Position numbers and translations under genes: made by a program. From IMG/VR virus record IMGVR_UViG_2671180724_000011: a stretch of 9,872 nt of DNA; one strand, 5' to 3'. This stretch comes from a virus (taxonomy: Duplodnaviria; Heunggongvirae; Uroviricota; Caudoviricetes). This document shows positions 1-9,872 of this stretch, in pieces. A model generated the notes under the pieces. It did no database searches. It was not told the origin of the DNA and worked only from the letters and a program-made list of their open reading frames with translations. Position 1 is the first letter of the stretch, and the number at the start of each line of letters is the position of its first letter.

Positions 1-183
1 AACGACAGGCTATCTATGAACCAGCTACCTCGCCGTGCGCTTTCGCGTTATGGTCTGACTTTTCAGGGAAATATCCTTTCAGTAAACTGTCAATGCCGGA
101 TGCTCACCCGTGTCCGGCGCACGCACTCCACCTCACCCGTGGAGAACTCCTTAATTACTAACCTTAGCTTTGTTGATTAGCTA

Positions 184-402
184 CTAACGCGGGTATGTAA
201 TCATTCTGGCAATGCTTAATGCCGCTGCTTTTTCCAGATTGGTGATATCCTGCTCCAGAGCGGACAGATTTTCAGCCTGCTTAGCTCTGGCTTCATTGGC
301 CCATTTCAGATCCTGCGCTGCATTAATTTTCTGGTGCATCCACTCATAAAGTTCATCATCGGTATAGTCTGGCGCGATGATGACGGGTTCTCGTTTCTGC
401 AT
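184..402 (-). CDS. ydfC: small prophage protein, YdfC-like (72 aa); distal gene of leftward dicB-type operon
   Basis: 219-nt ORF in the six-frame track; GAGGAA about 7 nt upstream of the ATG at 402; size and 29-nt gap to the upstream gene match my recollection of the K-12 Qin ydfA-ydfB-ydfC cluster. Name from memory, not from a search. Confidence 0.7.
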   Translation of the reverse strand: MQKREPVIIAPDYTDDELYEWMHQKINAAQDLKWANEARAKQAENLSALEQDITNLEKAAALSIARMITYPR

Positions 403-431
403 ACTGATTCCTCGCGGTGCTGTTTCGCTTA

Positions 432-560
432 TCAGCCGTTAGATTTTGCCGAACTGGAAAGCGCCTGTTTAAATTCGTTGAAGCTGAGAGCTTCTTCGCC
501 TTCGGCAAGACCTTCGAAGTATTCTTCGTAAGCCTTTTCCATGATTGTGTCGAAATCCAT
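432..560 (-). CDS. ydfB: small prophage protein, YdfB-like (42 aa, MDFDTIMEKAYEEYFEGLAEGEEALSFNEFKQALSSSAKSNG)
   Basis: Not in the ORF track (below its size cutoff). Found by reading the minus strand: ATG at 560-558 with AGGTGA upstream, TGA stop at 434-432; starts 1 nt after the stop of the upstream gene; 129 nt as I recall for K-12 ydfB. Confidence 0.6.
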   Translation of the reverse strand: MDFDTIMEKAYEEYFEGLAEGEEALSFNEFKQALSSSAKSNG

Positions 561-561
561 A

Positions 562-717
562 TCACTCACCTGAGTTTCTTTCCAGCCAGCGACGGGCACC
601 ATTTTCGGTTTTAAACGTTTTGCTTTTGGTATACGTCATCGCGGTGAACGTACCGTCCTGGTTGGGAAACACGCCGTACACCAGAGATTCGTTGTTGCCA
701 AGATCGATAGTATCCAT
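562..717 (-). CDS. ydfA: small prophage protein, YdfA-like (51 aa, MDTIDLGNNESLVYGVFPNQDGTFTAMTYTKSKTFKTENGARRWLERNSGE)
   Basis: Internal ATG at 717-715 preceded by GAGG 4-5 nt upstream; the track ORF extends to an ATG at 798 (78 aa) that also has a GAGG upstream, so the start is ambiguous; the 156-nt version matches the size I recall for K-12 ydfA. Confidence 0.65.
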   Translation of the reverse strand: MDTIDLGNNESLVYGVFPNQDGTFTAMTYTKSKTFKTENGARRWLERNSGE

Positions 718-900
718 GTTGACCTCATTTCCCCTTAACGCCGGGGTAGCGGAACAAAAACCTGCTGCATAGTTATTAAAGTTGAACCCTGCCGTCATGT
801 TCTTACGCCTCGGGCTGGCTACTTAACCCCTGACCACTGCCTGGTAACTCGAAGTATTGCCCTGCATTCTGTGGGGTGGGGTGGGTTGGTATGAAAGGAA

Positions 901-918
901 GGATACCCATGGGTATCC
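901..918. promoter_or_regulatory. operator: perfect 18-bp palindrome GGATACCCATGGGTATCC (left operator site 1)
   Basis: Sequence is its own reverse complement; lies between the repressor gene 3' end and the leftward small-gene operon; same core recurs at 928-941 and degenerately at 1437-1450 and 1462-1475. Confidence 0.6.
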
Positions 919-927
919 AAAAAGTAA

Positions 928-941
928 ATACCCATGGGTAA
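928..941. promoter_or_regulatory. operator: ATACCCATGGGTAA, 13/14 palindromic (left operator site 2)
   Basis: Near-identical core to 903-916; centre-to-centre spacing to site 1 is 25 bp. Confidence 0.55.
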
Positions 942-982
942 TTTTTTGATGTGTCTTAACTGGTGACTGGTTGTTTGGTGAG

Positions 983-1402
983 TTATGATGCGTTTTGTGC
1001 TTTCTTTTTACGGATTTCTTCGTAGATCATATTGTAATACTGTTTTTTCTCTTCAAGAGTTTTTAATAAGTTATCCGCTTCACTTTCTGGCAGTTCGTCT
1101 AAGAGATCTAAAAAAATACGTTGTCGTGGCGTTAGAACCCTTGTTTCATAATTGGAGGCTGTGTTCGTTGATGATGAAACGATACCATCCATCCATCCCC
1201 GGGGTAACCCAAAGGACTCTTCTATAATCTCCACCATATCATCAGCGATCCGTTTTTTTCCTTTTTTCCCCTCTGGGTACAACATTCTTGATACATAAGA
1301 AGGCTCGCGACCGATCTTTCTGGCCACGTTAACCGCTTTACCATCGCATTTCTCATCACGAATTTTGATGAGTTGTTGTCGTCTAAATTCATATTTGTCC
1401 AT
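983..1402 (-). CDS. prophage repressor, CI/DicA-like HTH (XRE family), 139 aa from ATG at 1402
   Basis: Minus-strand ORF; product has an HTH-like N-terminal half and a C-terminal LTPRQRIFLDLLDELPESEADN segment reminiscent of DicA-type repressors; divergent from a cro-like gene with operators on both sides. The track's 153-aa version begins at a TTG (1444); the first ATG is 1402 and has no Shine-Dalgarno, consistent with a leaderless repressor mRNA. Confidence 0.8.
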   Translation of the reverse strand: MDKYEFRRQQLIKIRDEKCDGKAVNVARKIGREPSYVSRMLYPEGKKGKKRIADDMVEIIEESFGLPRGWMDGIVSSSTNTASNYETRVLTPRQRIFLDLLDELPESEADNLLKTLEEKKQYYNMIYEEIRKKKAQNAS

Positions 1403-1436
1403 AGGTAAATAATAGATGCGATTACCGCAAGGTAAA

Positions 1437-1478
1437 CAACCCAAGGGTATTGACTTTTGTTTACCTGTGGGTATTCTT
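1437..1478 (+). promoter_or_regulatory. right operator/promoter region: two degenerate operator sites (CAACCCAAGGGTAT 1437-1450; TTACCTGTGGGTAT 1462-1475) overlapping a candidate -35 TTGACT (1451-1456) and -10 TATTCT (1473-1478)
   Basis: Each site matches 11/14 to the left-operator core; centres 25 bp apart, same as the left pair; -35/-10 with a 16-nt spacer lie about 25 nt upstream of the cro-like AAGGAG/ATG. Confidence 0.45.
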
Positions 1479-1502
1479 TGCTGTGTTTACTAAGGAGTAG
1501 CT

Positions 1503-1784
1503 ATGGAAGAATTAAGAATATTTCTCAATTCTCTTTCGTCAGATGAACAGCGTATGTTTGCATGTGAGTGTGGTACTAGCATCGGTTATCTAAGAAAGGC
1601 ATTGAGTAAAGGTCAAATGTTAGGGGCATCGTTATGTGTCCTTATTGAGCGAGCCAGTAATGGTGAAGTTACACGTCAGCAACTAAGGCCTTTTGATTGG
1701 ATGAATATTTGGCCCGAGCTGGAAGATACCAAAACGTTAACACAACCACTTACTAGGAGCTTGATTCATGAAAATCAAGCATGA
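1503..1784 (+). CDS. Cro/YdaS-like small HTH regulator (93 aa)
   Basis: ATG at 1503 with AAGGAG 6 nt upstream; divergent from the repressor; the IERASNGEVTRQQLRPFDW segment resembles YdaS/Cro-family proteins as I recall them. Confidence 0.75.
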   Translation: MEELRIFLNSLSSDEQRMFACECGTSIGYLRKALSKGQMLGASLCVLIERASNGEVTRQQLRPFDWMNIWPELEDTKTLTQPLTRSLIHENQA

Positions 1785-2193
1785 ACACATCCGCATGGCG
1801 ATGAATGCCTGGGCGCGTCCTGATGGCGAAAAAGTTCCAGCAGCTGGAATAACCCAGGCTTATTTTGAGTTGGGTATGACGTTTCCTGAACTGTATGACG
1901 ACAGCCATCCGGAAGCCCTGGCTCGCAATACCCAGAAAATTTTCCGCTGGGTAGAGAAAGACACCCCTGATGCAGTTGAAAAAATTCAGGCGTTGTTACC
2001 AGCGATCGAAAAGGCAATGCCACCTTTGCTGGTGGCCAGAATGCGCAGCCACAGTTCAGCTTATTTTCGGGAGTTGGTGGAGACGCGGGAGCGACTGGTG
2101 AGAGACGCTGATGATTTTGTCGCAGTGGCAATCGCCGGTTTCAATCAGATGAACCGTGGTGGCCCGGCAGGAAATGCTGTGGCAGTACATTGA
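1768..2193 (+). CDS. YdaT-like protein (141 aa), the cII-position gene of Rac-type prophages
   Basis: ATG at 1768 with AGGAG 7 nt upstream; overlaps the upstream gene by 17 nt (translational coupling); N-terminus MKIKHEHI and ~140 aa length match my recollection of Rac YdaT. Confidence 0.75.
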   Translation: MKIKHEHIRMAMNAWARPDGEKVPAAGITQAYFELGMTFPELYDDSHPEALARNTQKIFRWVEKDTPDAVEKIQALLPAIEKAMPPLLVARMRSHSSAYFRELVETRERLVRDADDFVAVAIAGFNQMNRGGPAGNAVAVH

Positions 2194-2264
2194 CTGACAA
2201 TAGCCATATCGAATCGCTTCCGGCAATTCGTGAGTAAAAAGATTCGGTATCAGAAGAGGTGAGT

Positions 2265-2423
2265 ATGGCTAACGCCTGGCTCAGATTATGGCATGACATG
2301 CCAAATGACCCTAAGTGGCGAACAATTGCCAGGGTGTCAGGGCAGCCAATTGCAACAGTGATGGCAGTGTATATCCACGCTCCTGGTGAGCGCGTCACGA
2401 AATGTCACGCGAGGTCACATTGA
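2265..2423 (+). CDS. N-terminal segment of replication initiator / replisome-organizer-like protein (52 codons), out of frame with the downstream ORF
   Basis: ATG at 2265 with GAGGTGAG just upstream; MANAWLRLWHDMPNDPKWRTIARVSGQPIATVMAVYIH resembles N-termini of phage replication-initiator proteins; ends at TGA 2421-2423 inside the first iteron cluster. Confidence 0.5.
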   Translation: MANAWLRLWHDMPNDPKWRTIARVSGQPIATVMAVYIHAPGERVTKCHARSH

Positions 2424-3336
2424 TGTCACGACAGAAGATTTGGCAAGTGCGCTCGACGTGACAGAAGAGGTAATTGATTCAATTTTGCAGACGATGCAGG
2501 GGCGGGTACTTGATGGTGATTTAATCACTGGATGGGAAAAACGCCAGGTGCTTAAAGAGGACAACGGCAATATTTCGCAAACCGCAAAATCTCCGGCAGA
2601 GCGCAAGAGGGCGCAGCGTGAGAGGGAAAGAAAGCGGGAACAAAATGGCGATTGTCACGGCGCGTCACGAAATGTCACGCACATGTCACGACGAGTCACG
2701 ACAGATAAAGATACAGATAGAGATACAGATAAAGAAGATCAAAACACTATGGTCCATGGCGTAAAAAACGCCACGAACCATGTAGGGGATGTTCAGACCG
2801 TCACTCCTGGCCAGCCCGCAGGCACGACACCGGAAGCCGATTCAGCGTATGCGCTGAAAGCCGATTCGGGCGCTGTGCAGCAGGCGATGACCGCTGGGCC
2901 GGAGCAATCACACCAACTGCAGCAGCCTGAAGCCGATTCCGCCATTCAGCGGGAAGCCGATCGGGTAGTCCCGGAAAACACCGGGCAGCCTGTGGGACGA
3001 GTGGATTATCCGGATGTGTTCGAACAGGTCTGGCGGGAATACCCGTTACGAGCCGGGGCAAACCCGAAGAAATCCGCTTTCAGTGCCTGGAAGGCCAGAT
3101 TACGCGAGGGGGTGCCACCAGAGGCCATGCTGGATGGTGTAAGGCGTTACACAAGATACCTGGCTGCTACCGGGAAAACGGGAACGGAATTTGTTCAGCG
3201 AGCGACGACGTTTTTTGGACCGGACCGGAATTTTGAAAACCCCTGGTTGCTCCCGGTAAGCGGCACGAACAACCAGCGTTGTGTTAATCATATTTCTGAA
3301 CCGGACACCGAAATTCCGCCGGGATTCAGAGGGTAA
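2386..3336 (+). CDS. replication initiator protein, main body (316 codons from GTG at 2386; probably continuous with 2265-2423 via a frameshift)
   Basis: Long ORF whose frame is open from 2362; no convincing RBS at the GTG; contains both iteron clusters in the same frame, an Asp-rich hexamer-repeat stretch, and a C-terminal FEQVWREYPLRAGANPKKSAFSAWKARL-type segment seen in phage replication proteins. Confidence 0.65.
   Translation: MSASRNVTRGHIDVTTEDLASALDVTEEVIDSILQTMQGRVLDGDLITGWEKRQVLKEDNGNISQTAKSPAERKRAQRERERKREQNGDCHGASRNVTHMSRRVTTDKDTDRDTDKEDQNTMVHGVKNATNHVGDVQTVTPGQPAGTTPEADSAYALKADSGAVQQAMTAGPEQSHQLQQPEADSAIQREADRVVPENTGQPVGRVDYPDVFEQVWREYPLRAGANPKKSAFSAWKARLREGVPPEAMLDGVRRYTRYLAATGKTGTEFVQRATTFFGPDRNFENPWLLPVSGTNNQRCVNHISEPDTEIPPGFRG
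2394..2430. repeat. iteron cluster 1: four GTCAC(G/A) hexamers at 2394, 2404, 2414, 2425
   Basis: 10-11 bp phasing (one helical turn); about 45 bp near-identical to cluster 2. Confidence 0.7.
2654..2700. repeat. iteron cluster 2: five GTCACG hexamers at 2654, 2664, 2674, 2685, 2695; candidate origin of replication inside the initiator gene
   Basis: 10/10/11/10 bp phasing; immediately followed by AGATAN hexamer repeats; arrangement analogous to lambda ori inside gene O. Confidence 0.7.
2703..2732. repeat. five tandem AGATAN hexamers (AT-rich stretch adjacent to iterons; encodes a DKDTDRDTDK repeat)
   Basis: AGATA at 2703, 2709, 2715, 2721, 2727. Confidence 0.6.
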
Positions 3337-3373
3337 CAGATTTCAGGTCATGGGGTAATTTTCAGGAGGGCTT

Positions 3374-3649
3374 GTGGCAAAAGTTTTTACTCCCGAACTG
3401 CGGGAAGAAGTGAAGGCGCGCATTGTGGAACTGGTACGCAGAGATGGGCGAAAAACGCGTAAACAACTGGAAAATGAAACCGGGGCGACGAGACACCTGA
3501 TAGAAGTTCTGGTGAAAGAGCTGGTAGTTAGTGGCGCAGTATATGGTTCAGGACATGGAATATTTCCTTCGGAGCAGGCTCGTAAGGACTGGGGAAAAGC
3601 CCGCAAAAAAAATGTCGAGAGCGGCAGTGAAAAAGAAGAGCGACCCTGA
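3374..3649 (+). CDS. hypothetical protein (91 aa, GTG start), likely the N-terminal part of a gene interrupted at an A8 run
   Basis: AGGAGGG 4 nt upstream of GTG 3374; ORF stops shortly after the A8 homopolymer at 3605-3612. Confidence 0.5.
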   Translation: MAKVFTPELREEVKARIVELVRRDGRKTRKQLENETGATRHLIEVLVKELVVSGAVYGSGHGIFPSEQARKDWGKARKKNVESGSEKEERP

Positions 3650-3782
3650 CCTGATTTATTCATTGCTAGATGGCGAAATACGCCGTTACAACAGACGACA
3701 GAATATAATTTGTCGCGAGTGTCGTCAGAGCGAAGTTATGCAGCGCATACTGGAATTTTATCAGGGAAATGTTCGGTATTAA
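3612..3782 (+). CDS. hypothetical protein, C-terminal part (MSRAAVKKKSDPDLIYSLLDGEIRRYNRRQNIICRECRQSEVMQRILEFYQGNVRY); probably fused to 3374-3649 in an intact allele
   Basis: Other frame is open from 3531 and overlaps the 3374 ORF; removing one A from the A8 run joins the two frames into one ORF of about 136 aa. Confidence 0.4.
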   Translation: MSRAAVKKKSDPDLIYSLLDGEIRRYNRRQNIICRECRQSEVMQRILEFYQGNVRY

Positions 3783-3927
3783 TTGAAGTGACGAAATTAA
3801 AGAGCATTAGTTCAGATATTAATTGACACTTCGATGGCACAGGCCCAGACCTAGTCTGGTTGTCAGCTTTGAGCTAGGTGAACGTTGGTATCGTTAGTTT
3901 GTATTAATCAACGGAGAATAGGCCAAA

Positions 3928-3958
3928 TGACTTTTCTTTGCCTCTTTTAATTATAATT
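3928..3958 (+). promoter_or_regulatory. candidate promoter for the large cargo gene inside the AT-rich spacer (-10 TATAAT 3953-3958; weak -35 TGACTT 3928-3933)
   Basis: Consensus -10 hexamer; the -35 is weak and the spacer is about 19 nt, so this is tentative. Confidence 0.25.
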
Positions 3959-4025
3959 CAAGTTCAATTGATTACATTGAAGTACTAATGTGAGTCCGTC
4001 AAACAAATAGCTCAAGGAATAGGTC

Positions 4026-6824
4026 ATGTGGGGAAGTGAAAACAAACAAAATCTGGACGTACTGGATCCTGTGCAGTTGGTGCGTATCGAAGCGGTACAC
4101 CGGGGGTTCCTTTACCAGCATCTTTACGCTGTAGGCTGCTTACTTTTGGCGCAGAGGGCAGCTATGGACTCAGTAACTGTCGAGCTTGATGAGGATATTG
4201 AGCTGAAATCCAAACAGGAACGTCTCTACATTCAGGTTAAAACCCGTTCAAAACCTATTATGCCCAACGATGTGTCGGGGGCTCTGGAGCGATTTGTAAA
4301 GCTCAGAAATGAGCATACTTCGGCAAACCGCGAAGGGGTGGCTTCTTTTGTGATTATTGTAAACCAGGCGCCTGGACCGCTGCTTCAGAAGATGATTGAC
4401 GATAAAAAGCTTCCTTCTGATGTTCTTATTGTCTGGCCCCAGTCGACAGCTGGACGTCACCCGGCACTTCCGCCCGCATGGAGTACTCTGGCTGATGCGG
4501 CCACATGGTGTATCGCAGAAGCAGAAAAGCTGAAATTTTCACTATTGTCCCCAGAATCCTTGATTTGGAAGTTAGCAGGATTGGTTCAGCTTGCCGCCAC
4601 CGGAGGCGATACCAATGGACAACATACGTTTTTCACGGAAGAACTTACTGAACTATTTGAACAGTTGATCGTTCAGCTACAGGACTTTCCTGCACCACCA
4701 GCACTGTACCGCCCACAGAACGAAGAACCTTCTCTCACATCTGGTGAGCGGATCCGTATCCTTTGTGGACTCTCAGGTGCAGGCAAGACAGCTTGGGCCG
4801 CACAGGCCGCATTACACTCCACTGCACTTTGTGCTTATTACGACACCGGTGATCTTCCCGGTCCAGCTCTGGCCAGTACGCTGGTGCGCGAGATGGCTGC
4901 TAGATTTACAGCCCGTGACCAAGACGGTTTGCGCAGGATTTTGCTCCCCGGTGCCAGTGGTTTTGAGGCTCTTAGGAGTTTTGATACCTACCTGAAAGAG
5001 CAGGGTACCACCTTGGTGCTGGTTCTGGATAACGCCCATCGTGTACCTGCGGAAAATCTACTGGATGTTCTGAATGCAACTACACATATTCGTTTTGTGC
5101 TGTTGTGCCAGCCTCACGAAAACGTTCGCGAACTGGAGGTCATGACGGGGCTACAGCGCGAGGGCCTGCAGGGATGGAATCTCGATACGGTAGCTGTCGT
5201 TGTAAACGATATCGGAGGATTTGCCACCGCTATGGGATACGAGCAGCTACGGGCTTACACTGGTGGTCTTCCCCTGTATGTAGAGAGCGCCGCAAAAATC
5301 GCCGTTTCTGATTATGAGCGTAATGTCGATGCTCTGTGTGCTGAACTCCAGCAACAAACCCATACTGCGGAAACCGCCCAAGAAATTATTCTGTCACGTG
5401 TATTTCAGGGATTTGAATCACTACTTCAGAGCGCGCTGGCATTGTTCAGTCTCTCTGACGTAGGGCTGAGTCGCGAAGAGATTTCTACGCTCCTAATCAA
5501 TTCGCTGAACATTTCACCAAGCAGTGCTGCTTCTTTAATTAGGAAAATGCGCGCTACTGGCACTATTGAAATTTATGGAAACCAGACCCTGAAGGTACAT
5601 GATGCTGTCAGGGGGCTAGGACTGCAACATCTGGAACTGATGGATCAGGGTATATCGAACAAAGCGCTACTAGCGCTGAAAGACCTTTTAGTTGAAAGTC
5701 TTCATAATACCCGCAATACAAAACGGTTATCGTTGTTGACTCAACTTTATATTAAGCTCAATGATGTCACGACGTTGATCGAACTCTCAGGCCAAGAAAT
5801 GTTTTATGAGATGGGCGTGACGGTCGACATTCTTGCAAGCTTGGAGCGTGCTGCAACATCGGACTTATTGGGACCTGTTCATAAATTCTGGGCATTGGAT
5901 GGCCTTGTTTTCGTTGAGCTTAAAGACGGAATATCCGACCACATTGCTCAGAGGTTAAACATCATGGGAGCTTTACTTGCGGAGCACAAGTTCGGCTATC
6001 AAGAAGAGATGGCCTATGCAATGAAACGAATGTTATTTTCGGCAGAAAGCAATGATGCACGAGAAGTTCAAAAGCTGGCACAGGAAGTCCGCCCCCAACT
6101 CCCAGATGAAGAACATAAACGCATCTTTGACTACAACCATGCCATTGCACTCTGGAGATTAAAAAAACTCAAGGATGCTGAAACATTAAGCTGTAATGTT
6201 ATACAAGGGTACTATTCTTTATTTGGTATCACACCTGCTGATGTCATAGGAAAAAACGCCGACGCATTATGGAAAACTATTAATCATTCCGAAAATATGC
6301 AGGAACACTTTAAACATATGGCTGATGCTCTGGAGTTGCTGGCCAGAATTCGTGATGCGCAGGGAAAACTGTCACCATTACTGCGTATTCATTCGATGAA
6401 GTTCTACAATCTGGCCATGGCCCCGGAATCCATGGTCAGGGTGGGCCAAGATCTGGCGGATGAGTTTGTTGCCATAAAGGATTACGACGGTGCCAAGGAA
6501 GTCATGGAGCAACATGTCCTGCCGGTTGTCAATGAGGCAGGTCTAGTACATCGACTGATTCAGGTTCGAAGCCAATACGCAGTCATATTAGCACTATCGG
6601 GTCAGCATAAAGCAGCTGATGTCGAAATGCAGCGCCTTGCTCCCTATATCGAAGGCCTCACAGGTGTACAGCGTCAAGAAATCCAAAATCAATCAAATTA
6701 CATCGTACAGCTTGCCCATAAAGCAGCAAAGACTAAATTAACTGAAGTTTTTGGTGCGGTCGGCCGGAATGAACAATGCCCCTGTGGCTCGGGAATAAAG
6801 TACAAAAAATGTCACGGTGCCTGA
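4026..6824 (+). CDS. 932-aa multidomain P-loop NTPase: N-terminal restriction-endonuclease-like region, central Walker A/B NTPase (STAND/AAA+-like), helical C-terminal region, terminal SEC-C-type zinc motif; candidate antiphage defense protein
   Basis: ATG 4026 with AAGGA 7 nt upstream; uninterrupted 2799-nt ORF; Walker A GLSGAGKT (aa 248-255, nt 4767-4790); Walker B-like LVLVLDNAH (aa 330-338); N-terminal RGFLYQ...VELDEDIEL...IQVK (aa 26-72); C-terminal CPCGSGIKYKKCHG (nt 6777-6818). Confidence 0.9.
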   Translation: MWGSENKQNLDVLDPVQLVRIEAVHRGFLYQHLYAVGCLLLAQRAAMDSVTVELDEDIELKSKQERLYIQVKTRSKPIMPNDVSGALERFVKLRNEHTSANREGVASFVIIVNQAPGPLLQKMIDDKKLPSDVLIVWPQSTAGRHPALPPAWSTLADAATWCIAEAEKLKFSLLSPESLIWKLAGLVQLAATGGDTNGQHTFFTEELTELFEQLIVQLQDFPAPPALYRPQNEEPSLTSGERIRILCGLSGAGKTAWAAQAALHSTALCAYYDTGDLPGPALASTLVREMAARFTARDQDGLRRILLPGASGFEALRSFDTYLKEQGTTLVLVLDNAHRVPAENLLDVLNATTHIRFVLLCQPHENVRELEVMTGLQREGLQGWNLDTVAVVVNDIGGFATAMGYEQLRAYTGGLPLYVESAAKIAVSDYERNVDALCAELQQQTHTAETAQEIILSRVFQGFESLLQSALALFSLSDVGLSREEISTLLINSLNISPSSAASLIRKMRATGTIEIYGNQTLKVHDAVRGLGLQHLELMDQGISNKALLALKDLLVESLHNTRNTKRLSLLTQLYIKLNDVTTLIELSGQEMFYEMGVTVDILASLERAATSDLLGPVHKFWALDGLVFVELKDGISDHIAQRLNIMGALLAEHKFGYQEEMAYAMKRMLFSAESNDAREVQKLAQEVRPQLPDEEHKRIFDYNHAIALWRLKKLKDAETLSCNVIQGYYSLFGITPADVIGKNADALWKTINHSENMQEHFKHMADALELLARIRDAQGKLSPLLRIHSMKFYNLAMAPESMVRVGQDLADEFVAIKDYDGAKEVMEQHVLPVVNEAGLVHRLIQVRSQYAVILALSGQHKAADVEMQRLAPYIEGLTGVQRQEIQNQSNYIVQLAHKAAKTKLTEVFGAVGRNEQCPCGSGIKYKKCHGA

Positions 6825-7044
6825 GTCTTTGTACGACCATGCGGGCCTTATTGTCTTGCTATTGCTCTTATGGTTCGCCTTTCTGATTGATTTCATATTG
6901 GCGAGGTGACGGGAGTTAAGTAGAATGGCTGCGGGTGCTTGAGGCTATCTGTCTCAGGCATGAACACCAAAGGCAGATAGAGAAAAGCCCCAGTTAACAT
7001 TACGCGTCCTGCAAGACGCTTAACATTAATCTGAGGCTCAATCT

Positions 7045-7257
7045 ATGAACGGCAAATCTAGGTTAGCCTCTTACGTGCCGAAAGGCAAGGAGAAGCAGGC
7101 TATGAAGCAGCAAAAGGCGATGTTAATCGTCCTGATCGTCATCTGTTTAACCGTCATAGTGACGGCACTGGTAACGAGGAAAGACCTCTGCGAGGTACGA
7201 ATCCGAACCGGCCAGACGGAGGTCGCTGTCTTCACAGCTTACGAACCTGAGGAGTAA
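7045..7257 (+). CDS. mok-like in-frame upstream extension of hok (70 aa)
   Basis: ATG 7045 in frame with hok and sharing its stop, as I recall for chromosomal mok/hok pairs such as mokC/hokC. Confidence 0.45.
   Translation: MNGKSRLASYVPKGKEKQAMKQQKAMLIVLIVICLTVIVTALVTRKDLCEVRIRTGQTEVAVFTAYEPEE
7102..7257 (+). CDS. hokD: Hok/Gef-family type I toxin, HokD (RelF)-like, 51 aa
   Basis: MKQQKAMLIVLIVICLTVIVTALVTRKDLCEVRIRTGQTEVAVFTAYEPEE is near-identical to the HokD sequence as I remember it; single transmembrane helix and conserved C-terminal Cys/Tyr segment; stop TAA 7255-7257. Confidence 0.85.
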   Translation: MKQQKAMLIVLIVICLTVIVTALVTRKDLCEVRIRTGQTEVAVFTAYEPEE

Positions 7258-7327
7258 GAGACCAGGCGGGGGAGAAATCCCTCGCCACCTCTGATGTGTC
7301 AGGCATCCTCAATGCACCCGCACTTAA

Positions 7328-7352
7328 CCCGCTTCGGCGGGTTTTGTTTTTT
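7328..7352 (+). terminator. Rho-independent terminator after hok (CCCGC-TTCG-GCGGG followed by TTTTGTTTTTT)
   Basis: GC stem 7328-7332 / 7337-7341 with 4-nt loop and an 11-nt T-rich tract. Confidence 0.75.
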
Positions 7353-7424
7353 CCTGGCATTCTGGTTTACAATTCGCACGCCAGCCTGAACAACTGGCAC
7401 CTGCTGCGCCAGCAGAGACAACCG

Positions 7425-7703
7425 ATGGCGCACGATACCAAATTACACAATTCTAATGATTCTGCTGTCTTTGCCAGCAGGTGCGGACGGCGTTTTCACG
7501 CATTCACATCAGACTGGTTCCAGCATCCTCCATGCACTGAAGAGCAGGCTGAATGGATAATTCAGTGTTACCGCAGGCGTGGATACGAGGTTAAGAAAGC
7601 TCTTAGTCTCGACTATCGTCACTGGATAATCTCAGTCAGACTCCCTTACTCCGAACGCCCACCGCGTCCGTCCCGCACATTCCAGCAACGCATCTGGAGG
7701 TAA
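7425..7703 (+). CDS. small prophage protein, copy 1 (92 aa), in the rem position downstream of hokD
   Basis: ATG 7425; the track's longer 7296 start would run through the hok terminator; C-terminal 70 aa nearly identical to copies 2 and 3, N-terminal 24 aa diverged. Confidence 0.65.
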   Translation: MAHDTKLHNSNDSAVFASRCGRRFHAFTSDWFQHPPCTEEQAEWIIQCYRRRGYEVKKALSLDYRHWIISVRLPYSERPPRPSRTFQQRIWR

Positions 7704-7704
7704 C

Positions 7705-8076
7705 GTGCGGGTATTACTTCGACCTGTTCTGGTACCGGAACTCGGGCTGGTGATCGTTAAGCCGGGCCGTGAATCCATGCCGGTATTCCACAATACCCGG
7801 GTACTGGTGGAGCCGGAACCGAAAAGCATGCGTAATCTGCCGTCCGGGGTCGTTCCTGCCGTTCGCCAGCCGCTGGTGGAAGACAAAACATTGCTGCCGT
7901 TTTTCAGTAACGCACGGGTGATTCGTGCTGCTGGTGGTGCTGGTGCATTGTCTGACTGGCTGTTGCGCCATATTAAATCCTGCCAGTGGCCACACGGCGA
8001 TTATCATCACAGCGAAACCGTCATTCACCGTTATGGTACCGGCGCAATGGTGTTGTGCTGGCACTGCGACAACCAG
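7705..8076 (+). CDS. GTG-start protein, copy 1, truncated by an N-run; possibly DUF968/YdfU-like
   Basis: GGAGG then TAA stop of the upstream gene then GTG 7705 (coupled); Cys/His-rich segment HIKSCQWPHGDYHH...CWHCDNQ; ORF runs into Ns at 8077. Confidence 0.55.
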
Positions 8077-8087
8077 NNNNNNNNNNN
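8077..8087. other. run of 11 N (gap or masked bases)
   Basis: Literal n characters in the sequence. Confidence 1.
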
Positions 8088-8182
8088 CAGGCTTTTCAGC
8101 TTTTGCAGAAGAATAAACTCATCTACAATCTTGCGCGGGGCTGAACTCCCGCTGAGTAACACCGTGCCACCGGAGAAAACCG

Positions 8183-8461
8183 ATGGCACGCAACGTAAAA
8201 TATTACAATTCTGATAATTCGCCCGTTCTTGCCTGCACGCACGAGCGGTATTCTCACGCATTCAAGTCTGAATGGTTCCAACACCCTCCATGTACTGAAG
8301 AGCAGGCTGAATGGATAATTCAGTGTTACCGCAGGCGCGGATACGAGGTTAAGAAAGCCCTTAGTCTCGACTACCGTCACTGGATAATCTCCGTCAGGCT
8401 TCCTTACTCTGAACGCCCACCGCGTCCGTCTCGCACATTCCAGCAACGCATCTGGAGGTAA
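8183..8461 (+). CDS. small prophage protein, copy 2 (92 aa)
   Basis: ATG 8183 with GGAG 7 nt upstream; identical in protein sequence to copy 3 over its full length. Confidence 0.7.
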   Translation: MARNVKYYNSDNSPVLACTHERYSHAFKSEWFQHPPCTEEQAEWIIQCYRRRGYEVKKALSLDYRHWIISVRLPYSERPPRPSRTFQQRIWR

Positions 8462-8462
8462 C

Positions 8463-9076
8463 GTGCGGGTATTACTTCGACCTGTTCTGGTACCGGAACT
8501 CGGGCTGGTGATCGTTAAGCCGGGCCGTGAATCCATGCCGGTATTCCACAATACCCGGGTACTGGTGGAGCCGGAACCGAAAAGCATGCGTAATCTGCCG
8601 TCCGGGGTCGTTCCTGCCGTTCGCCAGCCGCTGGTGGAAGACAAAACATTGCTGCCGTTTTTCAGTAACGCACGGGTAATTCGTGCTGCTGGTGGTGCTG
8701 GTGCATTGTCTGACTGGCTGTTGTGCCATATTAAATCCTGCCAGTGGCCACACGGCGATTATCATCACAGCGAAACCGTCATTCACCGTTATGGTACCGG
8801 CGCAATGGTGTTGTGCTGGCACTGCGACAACCAGCTGCGTGACCAGACATCCGAATCACTCGGGCAACTTGCTCATCAAAACCTGTCAGCATGGATGATT
8901 GACGTCATCGGTCACGCAATAAGCGGTACGCAGGAGCGTGAATTATCTTTGGCTGAATTATCCTGGTGGGCGGTCCGCAATCAGGTGGCGGACGCGCTAC
9001 CGGAAGCGGTATTACGTCGTTCGCTGGGGTTGCGTGCGGAAAAAATCCGCTCAATGTACCGTGAAAGCGACATCGT
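8463..9076 (+). CDS. GTG-start protein, copy 2, truncated by an N-run after about 204 codons; possibly DUF968/YdfU-like
   Basis: Same coupled GTG start; extends about 80 codons beyond the point where copy 1 is cut; runs into Ns at 9077. Confidence 0.6.
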
Positions 9077-9087
9077 NNNNNNNNNNN
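9077..9087. other. run of 11 N (gap or masked bases)
   Basis: Literal n characters; exactly 1000 bp from the first N-run. Confidence 1.
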
Positions 9088-9182
9088 CAGGCTTTTCAGC
9101 TTTTGCAGAAGAATAAACTCATCTACAATCTTGCGCGGGGCTGAACTCCCGCTGAGTAACACCGTGCCACCGGAGAAAACCG

Positions 9183-9461
9183 ATGGCACGCAACGTAAAA
9201 TATTACAATTCTGATAATTCGCCCGTTCTTGCCTGCACGCACGAGCGGTATTCTCACGCATTCAAGTCTGAATGGTTCCAACACCCTCCATGTACTGAAG
9301 AGCAGGCTGAATGGATAATTCAGTGTTACCGCAGGCGCGGATACGAGGTTAAGAAAGCCCTTAGTCTCGACTACCGTCACTGGATAATCTCCGTCAGGCT
9401 TCCTTACTCTGAACGCCCACCGCGTCCGTCTCGCACATTCCAGCAACGCATCTGGAGGTAA
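9183..9461 (+). CDS. small prophage protein, copy 3 (92 aa)
   Basis: Exactly 1000 bp downstream of copy 2; identical protein sequence. Confidence 0.7.
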   Translation: MARNVKYYNSDNSPVLACTHERYSHAFKSEWFQHPPCTEEQAEWIIQCYRRRGYEVKKALSLDYRHWIISVRLPYSERPPRPSRTFQQRIWR

Positions 9462-9462
9462 C

Positions 9463-9872
9463 GTGCGGGTATTACTTCGACCTGTTCTGGTACCGGAACT
9501 CGGGCTGGTGATCGTTAAGCCGGGCCGTGAATCCATGCCAGTATTCCACAATACCCGGGTATTGATGGAGCCGGAACCGAAAAGCATGCGTAATCTGCCG
9601 TCCGGGGTCGTTCCTGCCGTTCGCCAGCCGCTGGAGGAAGACAAAACATTGCTGCCGTTTTTCAGTAACGCACGGGTGATTCGTGCTGCTGGTGGTGCTG
9701 GTGCATTGTCTGACTGGCTGTTGCGCCATATTAAATCCTGCCAGTGGCCACACGGCGATTATCATCACAGCGAAACCGTCATTCACCGTTATGGTACCGG
9801 CGCAATGGTGTTGTGCTGGCACTGCGACAACCAGTTGCGTGACCAGACCTCCGAATCACTCGAGCAACTTGC
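9463..9872 (+). CDS. GTG-start protein, copy 3, partial (runs off the window end); possibly DUF968/YdfU-like
   Basis: GTG 9463 with the same coupled context; no stop before the window end, so absent from the ORF track; a handful of substitutions relative to copy 2. Confidence 0.6.
   Translation, partial: MRVLLRPVLVPELGLVIVKPGRESMPVFHNTRVLMEPEPKSMRNLPSGVVPAVRQPLEEDKTLLPFFSNARVIRAAGGAGALSDWLLRHIKSCQWPHGDYHHSETVIHRYGTGAMVLCWHCDNQLRDQTSESLEQL

Follow-up and report, generated by a model that had tools for sequence, protein, structure and literature searches.

The last part of the analyzed sequence (IMG/VR record IMGVR_UViG_2671180724_000011; 9,872 nucleotides in total, hereafter the window) shows the same pair of genes three times in a row on one strand, with a period of exactly 1000 bp between the last two units. 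This arrangement raises the question of whether an E. coli prophage carries a tandem array of paralogous genes or whether the array arose only during the assembly of the draft sequence. Based on the sequence itself and on the comparison with contiguous relatives described below, we consider it very probable that the apparent array is a mis-scaffolded paralogous prophage repeat, i.e., an assembly artefact and no real feature of the genome.

Three copies of a gene pair in the window

The repeated pair consists of a 92-codon open reading frame (ORF) followed by a gene with a GTG start codon. An earlier note, made from the sequence alone, had described three copies of this pair, and all three were recovered at the same offsets, with ATG codons at 7425, 8183 and 9183 and GTG codons at 7705, 8463 and 9463. 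The start-to-start spacing, as determined with a repeat finder, is 758 nt between the first two units and exactly 1000 nt between the last two, as the note had stated for the latter. Copies 2 and 3 had been reported to differ at only a few positions; we counted differences at 9 of the 785 compared positions, all of them in the downstream gene from 8540 on. The first copy had been called more diverged, with another N-terminus of the small protein, and the alignment bears this out (MAHDTKLH... versus MARNVKYY...): its identity amounts to 63–80% per 30-nt window in the first ~100 nt of the small ORF. From 7679 to 8076, every 30-nt window is 97–100% identical. Overall, the likeness among the copies is far above chance.

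The repeated genes belong to a common lambdoid module

As judged from annotated relatives, the repeated genes are part of an ordinary lambdoid (Qin-like) prophage module with the order hokD-(rem)-orf92-DUF968/ydfU-rusA-Q, located between the replication genes and the antiterminator gene Q. In closed E. coli genomes, the matching DNA is annotated as hokD, rem, a 279-nt gene for a hypothetical protein (the 92-codon ORF, here orf92), a gene for a DUF968 domain protein (ydfU), a RusA family resolvase and antiterminator Q. The ydfU/DUF968 gene has a length of 1050–1056 nt in these genomes.

From position 7258 on, the window is composed of three pieces, the first reaching to 8076, the second extending from 8088 to 9076 and the third from 9088 to the window end; all pieces and the features located on them are given on the + strand. 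The first piece is the end of contig 1 (1–8076), which represents a lambdoid prophage early region and stops inside the DUF968 gene. This contig harbors the mok/hokD type I toxin gene (7045–7257, hokD proper at ~7102–7257), recognized as an ORF, from the hokD annotation in an identical closed-genome locus and from the Pfam family HOK_GEF, as well as a terminator-like hairpin with a T run after hokD (7326–7353; consensus scan). Piece 1 is a rem-less variant of the module, in which hokD and the terminator are directly followed by an orf92 with a different N-terminus. This first orf92 copy (7425–7703, MAHDTKLH...) corresponds to WP_032351946.1, a hypothetical protein in NZ_CP148374.1, and precedes the first 372 nt (124 codons) of the DUF968/ydfU gene (7705–8076), which is cut by the end of contig 1; the full gene measures 1056 nt in the related locus L003. 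The rem-less type is naturally common, with a 50-mer across its orf92 start occurring in more than 120 IMG/VR contigs.

Pieces 2 and 3 represent the rem type of the module. Piece 2 starts with the last 29 nt of rem (8088–8116, encoding ..AGFSAFAEE and the stop codon), corresponding to position 4001 of locus L001, where rem occupies 3778–4029. It continues with orf92 copy 2 (8183–8461, MARNVKYY...), which matches the gene of WP_023147795.1 (hypothetical protein) in L001 and L004, and with the first 614 nt of the DUF968 gene (8463–9076), cut by the end of contig 2; this gene is full length in two closed genomes identical to the window over 8520–9076. The preceding sequence, 8088–8539, is identical to locus L004. 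Piece 3 likewise begins with the last 29 nt of rem (9088–9116), its first base being the same as that of piece 2. According to the ORF comparison, its orf92 (9183–9461) is identical to copy 2, and it is followed by the first 410 nt of the DUF968 gene (9463–9872), which runs off the window end and shares 99.6% identity with the copy of the rem type in NZ_CP148374.1.

For the product of the 92-codon ORF, no family was found in Pfam or PADLOC. The full-length DUF968 relatives in L003 and L004 match the Pfam family DUF968 (PF06147) at residues 160–346 with 215.9 and 258.1 bits, respectively (cut-off 27.8), and full-length relatives of the gene also match Pfam HNHc_6. DUF968 has been grouped with YdfU and YbcO in group 7 of the His-Me finger (HNH) nucleases (PMC5714182), and an Orf-like N-terminal part was proposed for some of its members (PMC4118853). 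The DUF968 fragments of the window, comprising 124, 204 and 136 codons, end before the DUF968 domain or barely enter it.

Unit boundaries coincide with runs of N

The window contains two N runs of exactly 11 N each, at 8077–8087 (scaffold gap 1) and 9077–9087 (scaffold gap 2; both without strand), and no other N. These two runs, which the earlier note had not mentioned, are also the two junctions of the supposed array. A search of viral and genome contig collections with the junction pattern, its 11 N included, gave 0 hits, which carries no weight because N in a record may fail to match and the source may lie outside these collections. Their equal length suggests that they are placeholders rather than measured gaps. 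Since pieces 2 and 3 share their start base, the period is simply the length of piece 2 (989 nt, 8088–9076) plus the 11 N. Read in this way, the 1000-bp period is without biological meaning, and its round figure is a coincidence of 989 + 11.

The same boundaries account for the different truncations of the downstream gene described in the earlier note. The cut points do differ, with the DUF968 gene ending at nt 372 in unit 1 vs nt 614 in unit 2, and the junctions are unequal in this respect. However, the cuts are contig ends at N runs: the terminal residues ...CDNQ and ...RESDI are encoded by the final bases ahead of the respective run. The earlier note had correctly concluded against a simple head-to-tail duplication, but had overlooked the actual cause, namely contig ends at scaffold gaps. 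Masking of 11 real bases by the N runs was considered as well and rejected, as the bases after each run belong to the 3' end of rem and do not continue the DUF968 gene. On these grounds, the "three tandem copies" are a property of the scaffold text and not of contiguously sequenced DNA.

A real array would imply that two successive partial rem-orf92-DUF968 modules from other prophages were inserted into the resident DUF968 gene by illegitimate recombination, with ~11 nt left unread at each junction. The tandem order of the scaffold on one strand is in agreement with this scenario, and recombination of prophage modules does occur: among the relatives, three neighboring sites are found in at least five haplotype combinations, and the related locus L131 joins the same upstream prophage to a rem-type module. 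However, neither junction is crossed by a sequenced base, and although the two junctions interrupt DUF968 at separate positions, the sequence after each of them sets in at one and the same rem base. Units 2 and 3, being of the rem type, do not descend from the rem-less unit 1, so that two independent illegitimate insertions would be needed, both of which would also have to be unsequenceable. Furthermore, it would consist of truncated copies without the whole DUF968 domain (residues 160–343).

Contiguous relatives carry a single copy

Next to these internal features, the organization of related loci bears on the copy number. The window from 1 to 8076 shows 100.000% identity, without gaps, to a 288-kb contig of GCA_037641125.1 (L136) and 99.99% identity, with one 1-nt gap, to the closed chromosome NZ_CP148374.1. 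In both sequences, the DUF968 gene extends over 351 codons, with rusA, Q and tRNA genes downstream of it, and the gene pair is single at the locus. NZ_CP148374.1, which is the nearest closed genome, contains a second, rem-type copy at 4.878 Mb, located in another prophage ~3.9 Mb away. This copy shares 99.1% identity with piece 2 and 99.6% with piece 3. In total, 4–6 places of this genome match the queries, and E. coli genomes have up to 9–11 places matching the module per genome.

The analysis was extended to 136 related loci, comprising 120 IMG/VR proviruses, closed-genome loci, a phage and 10 contigs with the exact 932-aa protein of the window. In every one of them (136/136), the conserved core is present exactly once and N is absent, and 103 of the 136 have at least 1.8 kb of downstream sequence, which is enough to reveal a second copy. 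In phage records, the three query copies collapse onto one place, as in the top record HannyBb, which carries a single copy with a span of ~1.8 kb. Similarly, all three pieces of the window align onto one and the same 1–1.8 kb of single-copy references, meaning that they overlap in content. The copy number in related prophages had been put forward as a check of the array, and the single pair at all 136 loci speaks against it.

The exact 932-aa protein is found in 549 blocks of public assemblies, and in 280 of these 549 blocks the longest carrying contig has a size of 5–10 kb. This suggests that short-read assemblies usually break up at repeats in this region.

Neither junction is found in closed E. 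coli genomes

We further looked for the junctions themselves in 5,426 closed E. coli genomes. For this purpose, 60 or 100 nt from each side of an N run were joined into one query, with lengths set in such a way that the two halves merge into one place only when they are close together. For junction 1, none of the 5,426 genomes covers at least 80% of the query. For junction 2, 57 of the 5,426 reach 80% coverage, all of them with the same 590-nt span in two pieces. E. coli strain C, the sole one of the 57 that was inspected, shows rem, orf92 and DUF968 in their normal order, the last of them as a pseudogene lacking ~400 nt of its 5' part. This deletion brings the two halves of the query within range of each other, but in an order opposite to that of the query. 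The 57 apparent positives, mostly B/BL21-derived strains and strain C, were therefore rejected as cases of a ~400-nt 5' deletion of DUF968 in normal gene order. As far as this search is concerned, neither junction is present in any of the 5,426 closed genomes.

The real, recombination-prone paralog array that the earlier note had suggested as one of its readings is thus not supported, with N-run junctions at unequal points, a first unit of another module type, no closed E. coli genome with either junction and one copy at each of the related loci.

Contigs end directly ahead of variant sites

The positions of the contig ends offer a clue to how the scaffold came about. The end of contig 1 at 8076 corresponds to 8834 in piece 2, and the next site, 8835/9835, is one of the nine differences between pieces 2 and 3 (C vs T). 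The chance of contig 1 ending one base ahead of such a site is ~1%. Across related loci, this site is a common polymorphism, with 77 loci carrying C and 52 carrying T. Contig 2 also ends one base before a variant site, where A is present in 107 and G in 18 related loci. As a background, a minor-allele fraction of at least 0.1 is reached at ~16% of the sites in the first 700 nt of the gene. In a real array, both cut points would have to fall just ahead of common variant sites, and, together with the evidence from the junctions and the relatives, we regard this alternative as extremely improbable.

At the shared start of pieces 2 and 3 within rem, no variant site was found in five rem-type references. 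An IS3-family element (CDS to locus position 5827) splits rem in NZ_CP148374.1, where the annotated right-hand rem fragment starts at 5871. Such an IS element was rejected as the cause of the common start, as the pieces begin 130 nt downstream of the start of the right-hand fragment.

Altogether, contigs ending at divergence points, a common start node, overlapping content and equal N spacers point to the product of an assembler and scaffolder confronted with a multi-copy module. In the favored scenario of a mis-scaffolded repeat, three contigs of one conserved module would have been laid end to end with a fixed 11-N spacer. Piece 1, up to 8076, would be the true continuation of the prophage of the window and of the rem-less type. 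Pieces 2 (8088–9076) and 3 (from 9088 on) would be rem-type versions, most likely originating from other prophages of the same E. coli genome. As the module is ~99% identical between prophages, the assembler would have broken the contigs where the copies differ. A scaffolder or contig-ordering step, guided by read pairs or by a reference, may then have set the overlapping pieces side by side with a placeholder gap between them. The N runs, the single-copy organization elsewhere and the contig ends at variant sites are direct observations, and we infer this exact step and the paralogy of the variants within one genome.

Origin of pieces 2 and 3

Both pieces are mosaics that combine alleles from the two module copies in the closed genome NZ_CP148374.1. 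Over their whole length, their haplotypes have no 100% match in closed genomes, the best identities being the abovementioned 99.1% and 99.6%. Two closed genomes contain the DUF968 part of piece 2 (8520–9076) at 100% identity, and a single IMG/VR contig has its 200-mer; by these matches, this part is a natural allele. For piece 3, no 100% match to a stretch of 353 nt was found in the 5,426 closed genomes, and no exact one to its final 200 nt in IMG/VR. The three-site T-C-A combination of piece 3 is present only in two IMG/VR contigs, each of which is just 85% identical overall. Piece 3 may be a chimeric consensus or a rare allele.

One further possibility is that the same artefact was formed from allelic variants of different strains in a mixed sample or metagenome, joined through shared read-pair links. 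Pieces 2 and 3 with their mere 9 differences over 785 sites and their common start base would fit such a mixture, and so would the haplotype of piece 3, for which we found no exact match in the closed genomes and, for its end, none in IMG/VR. However, several copies of the module per E. coli genome are common, with up to 9–11 places, and both module types coexist in the closed genome nearest to piece 1, so that paralogy suffices as an explanation. In addition, piece 1 is 100% identical to isolate assemblies. We therefore consider a strain mixture unlikely, although far less so than a real array. That pieces 2 and 3 stem from other prophages within the same genome is plausible and favored over an origin from co-occurring strains. 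In this respect, the second reading of the earlier note, a collapsed or mis-scaffolded repeat made from population variants, holds for the mis-scaffolding, but the variants are most simply explained as paralogs from different prophages.

Comparison with known systems

The main value of this locus is one of caution: N runs in draft scaffolds can mimic tandem arrays with truncated genes and oddly exact periods. In scans of raw sequence, repeats whose unit boundaries fall on N runs should be counted as unproven. The biology seen here is that of the well-known mosaic, multi-copy lambdoid prophage modules of E. coli, and nothing beyond.

With regard to its genes, the locus resembles the Qin-type module hokD-rem-(orf92)-ydfU(DUF968)-rusA-Q in gene order and sequence, with pieces 2 and 3 being 99% identical to the annotated rem, hypothetical protein and DUF968 loci. 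It differs from this module in piece 1, which lacks rem and has another orf92 N-terminus, and in its DUF968 copies, all three of which stop at a contig end or at the window end. With regard to its arrangement, a genuine tandem amplification by unequal crossing-over would also produce head-to-tail copies on one strand with a high identity, as between units 2 and 3. Such amplifications, however, have identical, readable junctions and units derived from one another, whereas here the two N-run junctions differ in position and unit 1 belongs to another module type. The closest counterpart is the mis-scaffolded or fragmented lambdoid prophage repeat of short-read E. coli assemblies, in which near-identical modules are present in several prophages of one genome, contigs of typically 5–10 kb end where the copies differ and the pieces are joined by fixed N spacers; from this, the locus differs in nothing essential.

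Module exchange and haplotype mosaicism

The lambdoid (Qin-type) module hokD-(rem)-orf92-DUF968/ydfU-rusA-Q occurs in a rem-type and a rem-less version, and we compared its arrangement in the window with that in related sequences. An ENA contig (ERZ27273445; 13072-15104 of that locus) carries the upstream prophage of the window and an identical gene for its 932-aa protein, followed by the rem-type rather than the rem-less module; identity with the window ends at approximately window position 7351. This arrangement shows natural module exchange directly 3' of hokD. In the closed Escherichia coli genome nearest to the window (NZ_CP148374.1), an IS3-family element disrupts rem in the second prophage (4465-6029 of that locus).

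The haplotype of the last rem-type piece (9088-9872) is a mosaic, mixing alleles of both module copies of NZ_CP148374.1. It was matched exactly in none of the 5,426 closed E. coli genomes, and a search of IMG/VR for the last 200 nt likewise returned no exact match. Possibly, this piece represents a chimeric consensus of paralogs.

In the search with the second junction as query, 57 closed genomes, including E. coli strain C, share the same 590-nt two-piece match. These are mostly derived from B/BL21, with strain C and some wild isolates among them. In strain C, the one inspected of the 57 (2472-3026 of the strain C locus), DUF968 is a pseudogene lacking approximately 400 nt of its 5' part, within the normal gene order rem-orf92-DUF968.

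Replication region and cargo gene

Clustered direct repeats containing GTCACG (repeat family D4) are located at 2394-2432 and 2654-2702 within the O-like replication gene (2386-3336) and are probably origin iterons. The DUF977 gene (3374-3782) is divided between two overlapping open reading frames (3374-3649 and 3531-3782), and the matching locus of NZ_CP148374.1 is annotated as a frameshifted pseudogene.

Between DUF977 and hokD, the prophage, whose integration site adjoins tRNA-Ser/mtfA, carries the gene of the 932-aa protein as cargo (4026-6824, plus strand). The identical protein is common, being found in 549 blocks. A Cap4-type dsDNA nuclease domain lies near its N-terminus (residues 25-77), residues 239-364 form an AAA_22 ATPase region, and a SEC-C zinc motif lies at the C-terminus (residues 914-931). 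The protein looks like a moron-borne, single-gene candidate for anti-phage defence. PADLOC matched it weakly to LmuA (5e-07) and, also weakly, to HamA.
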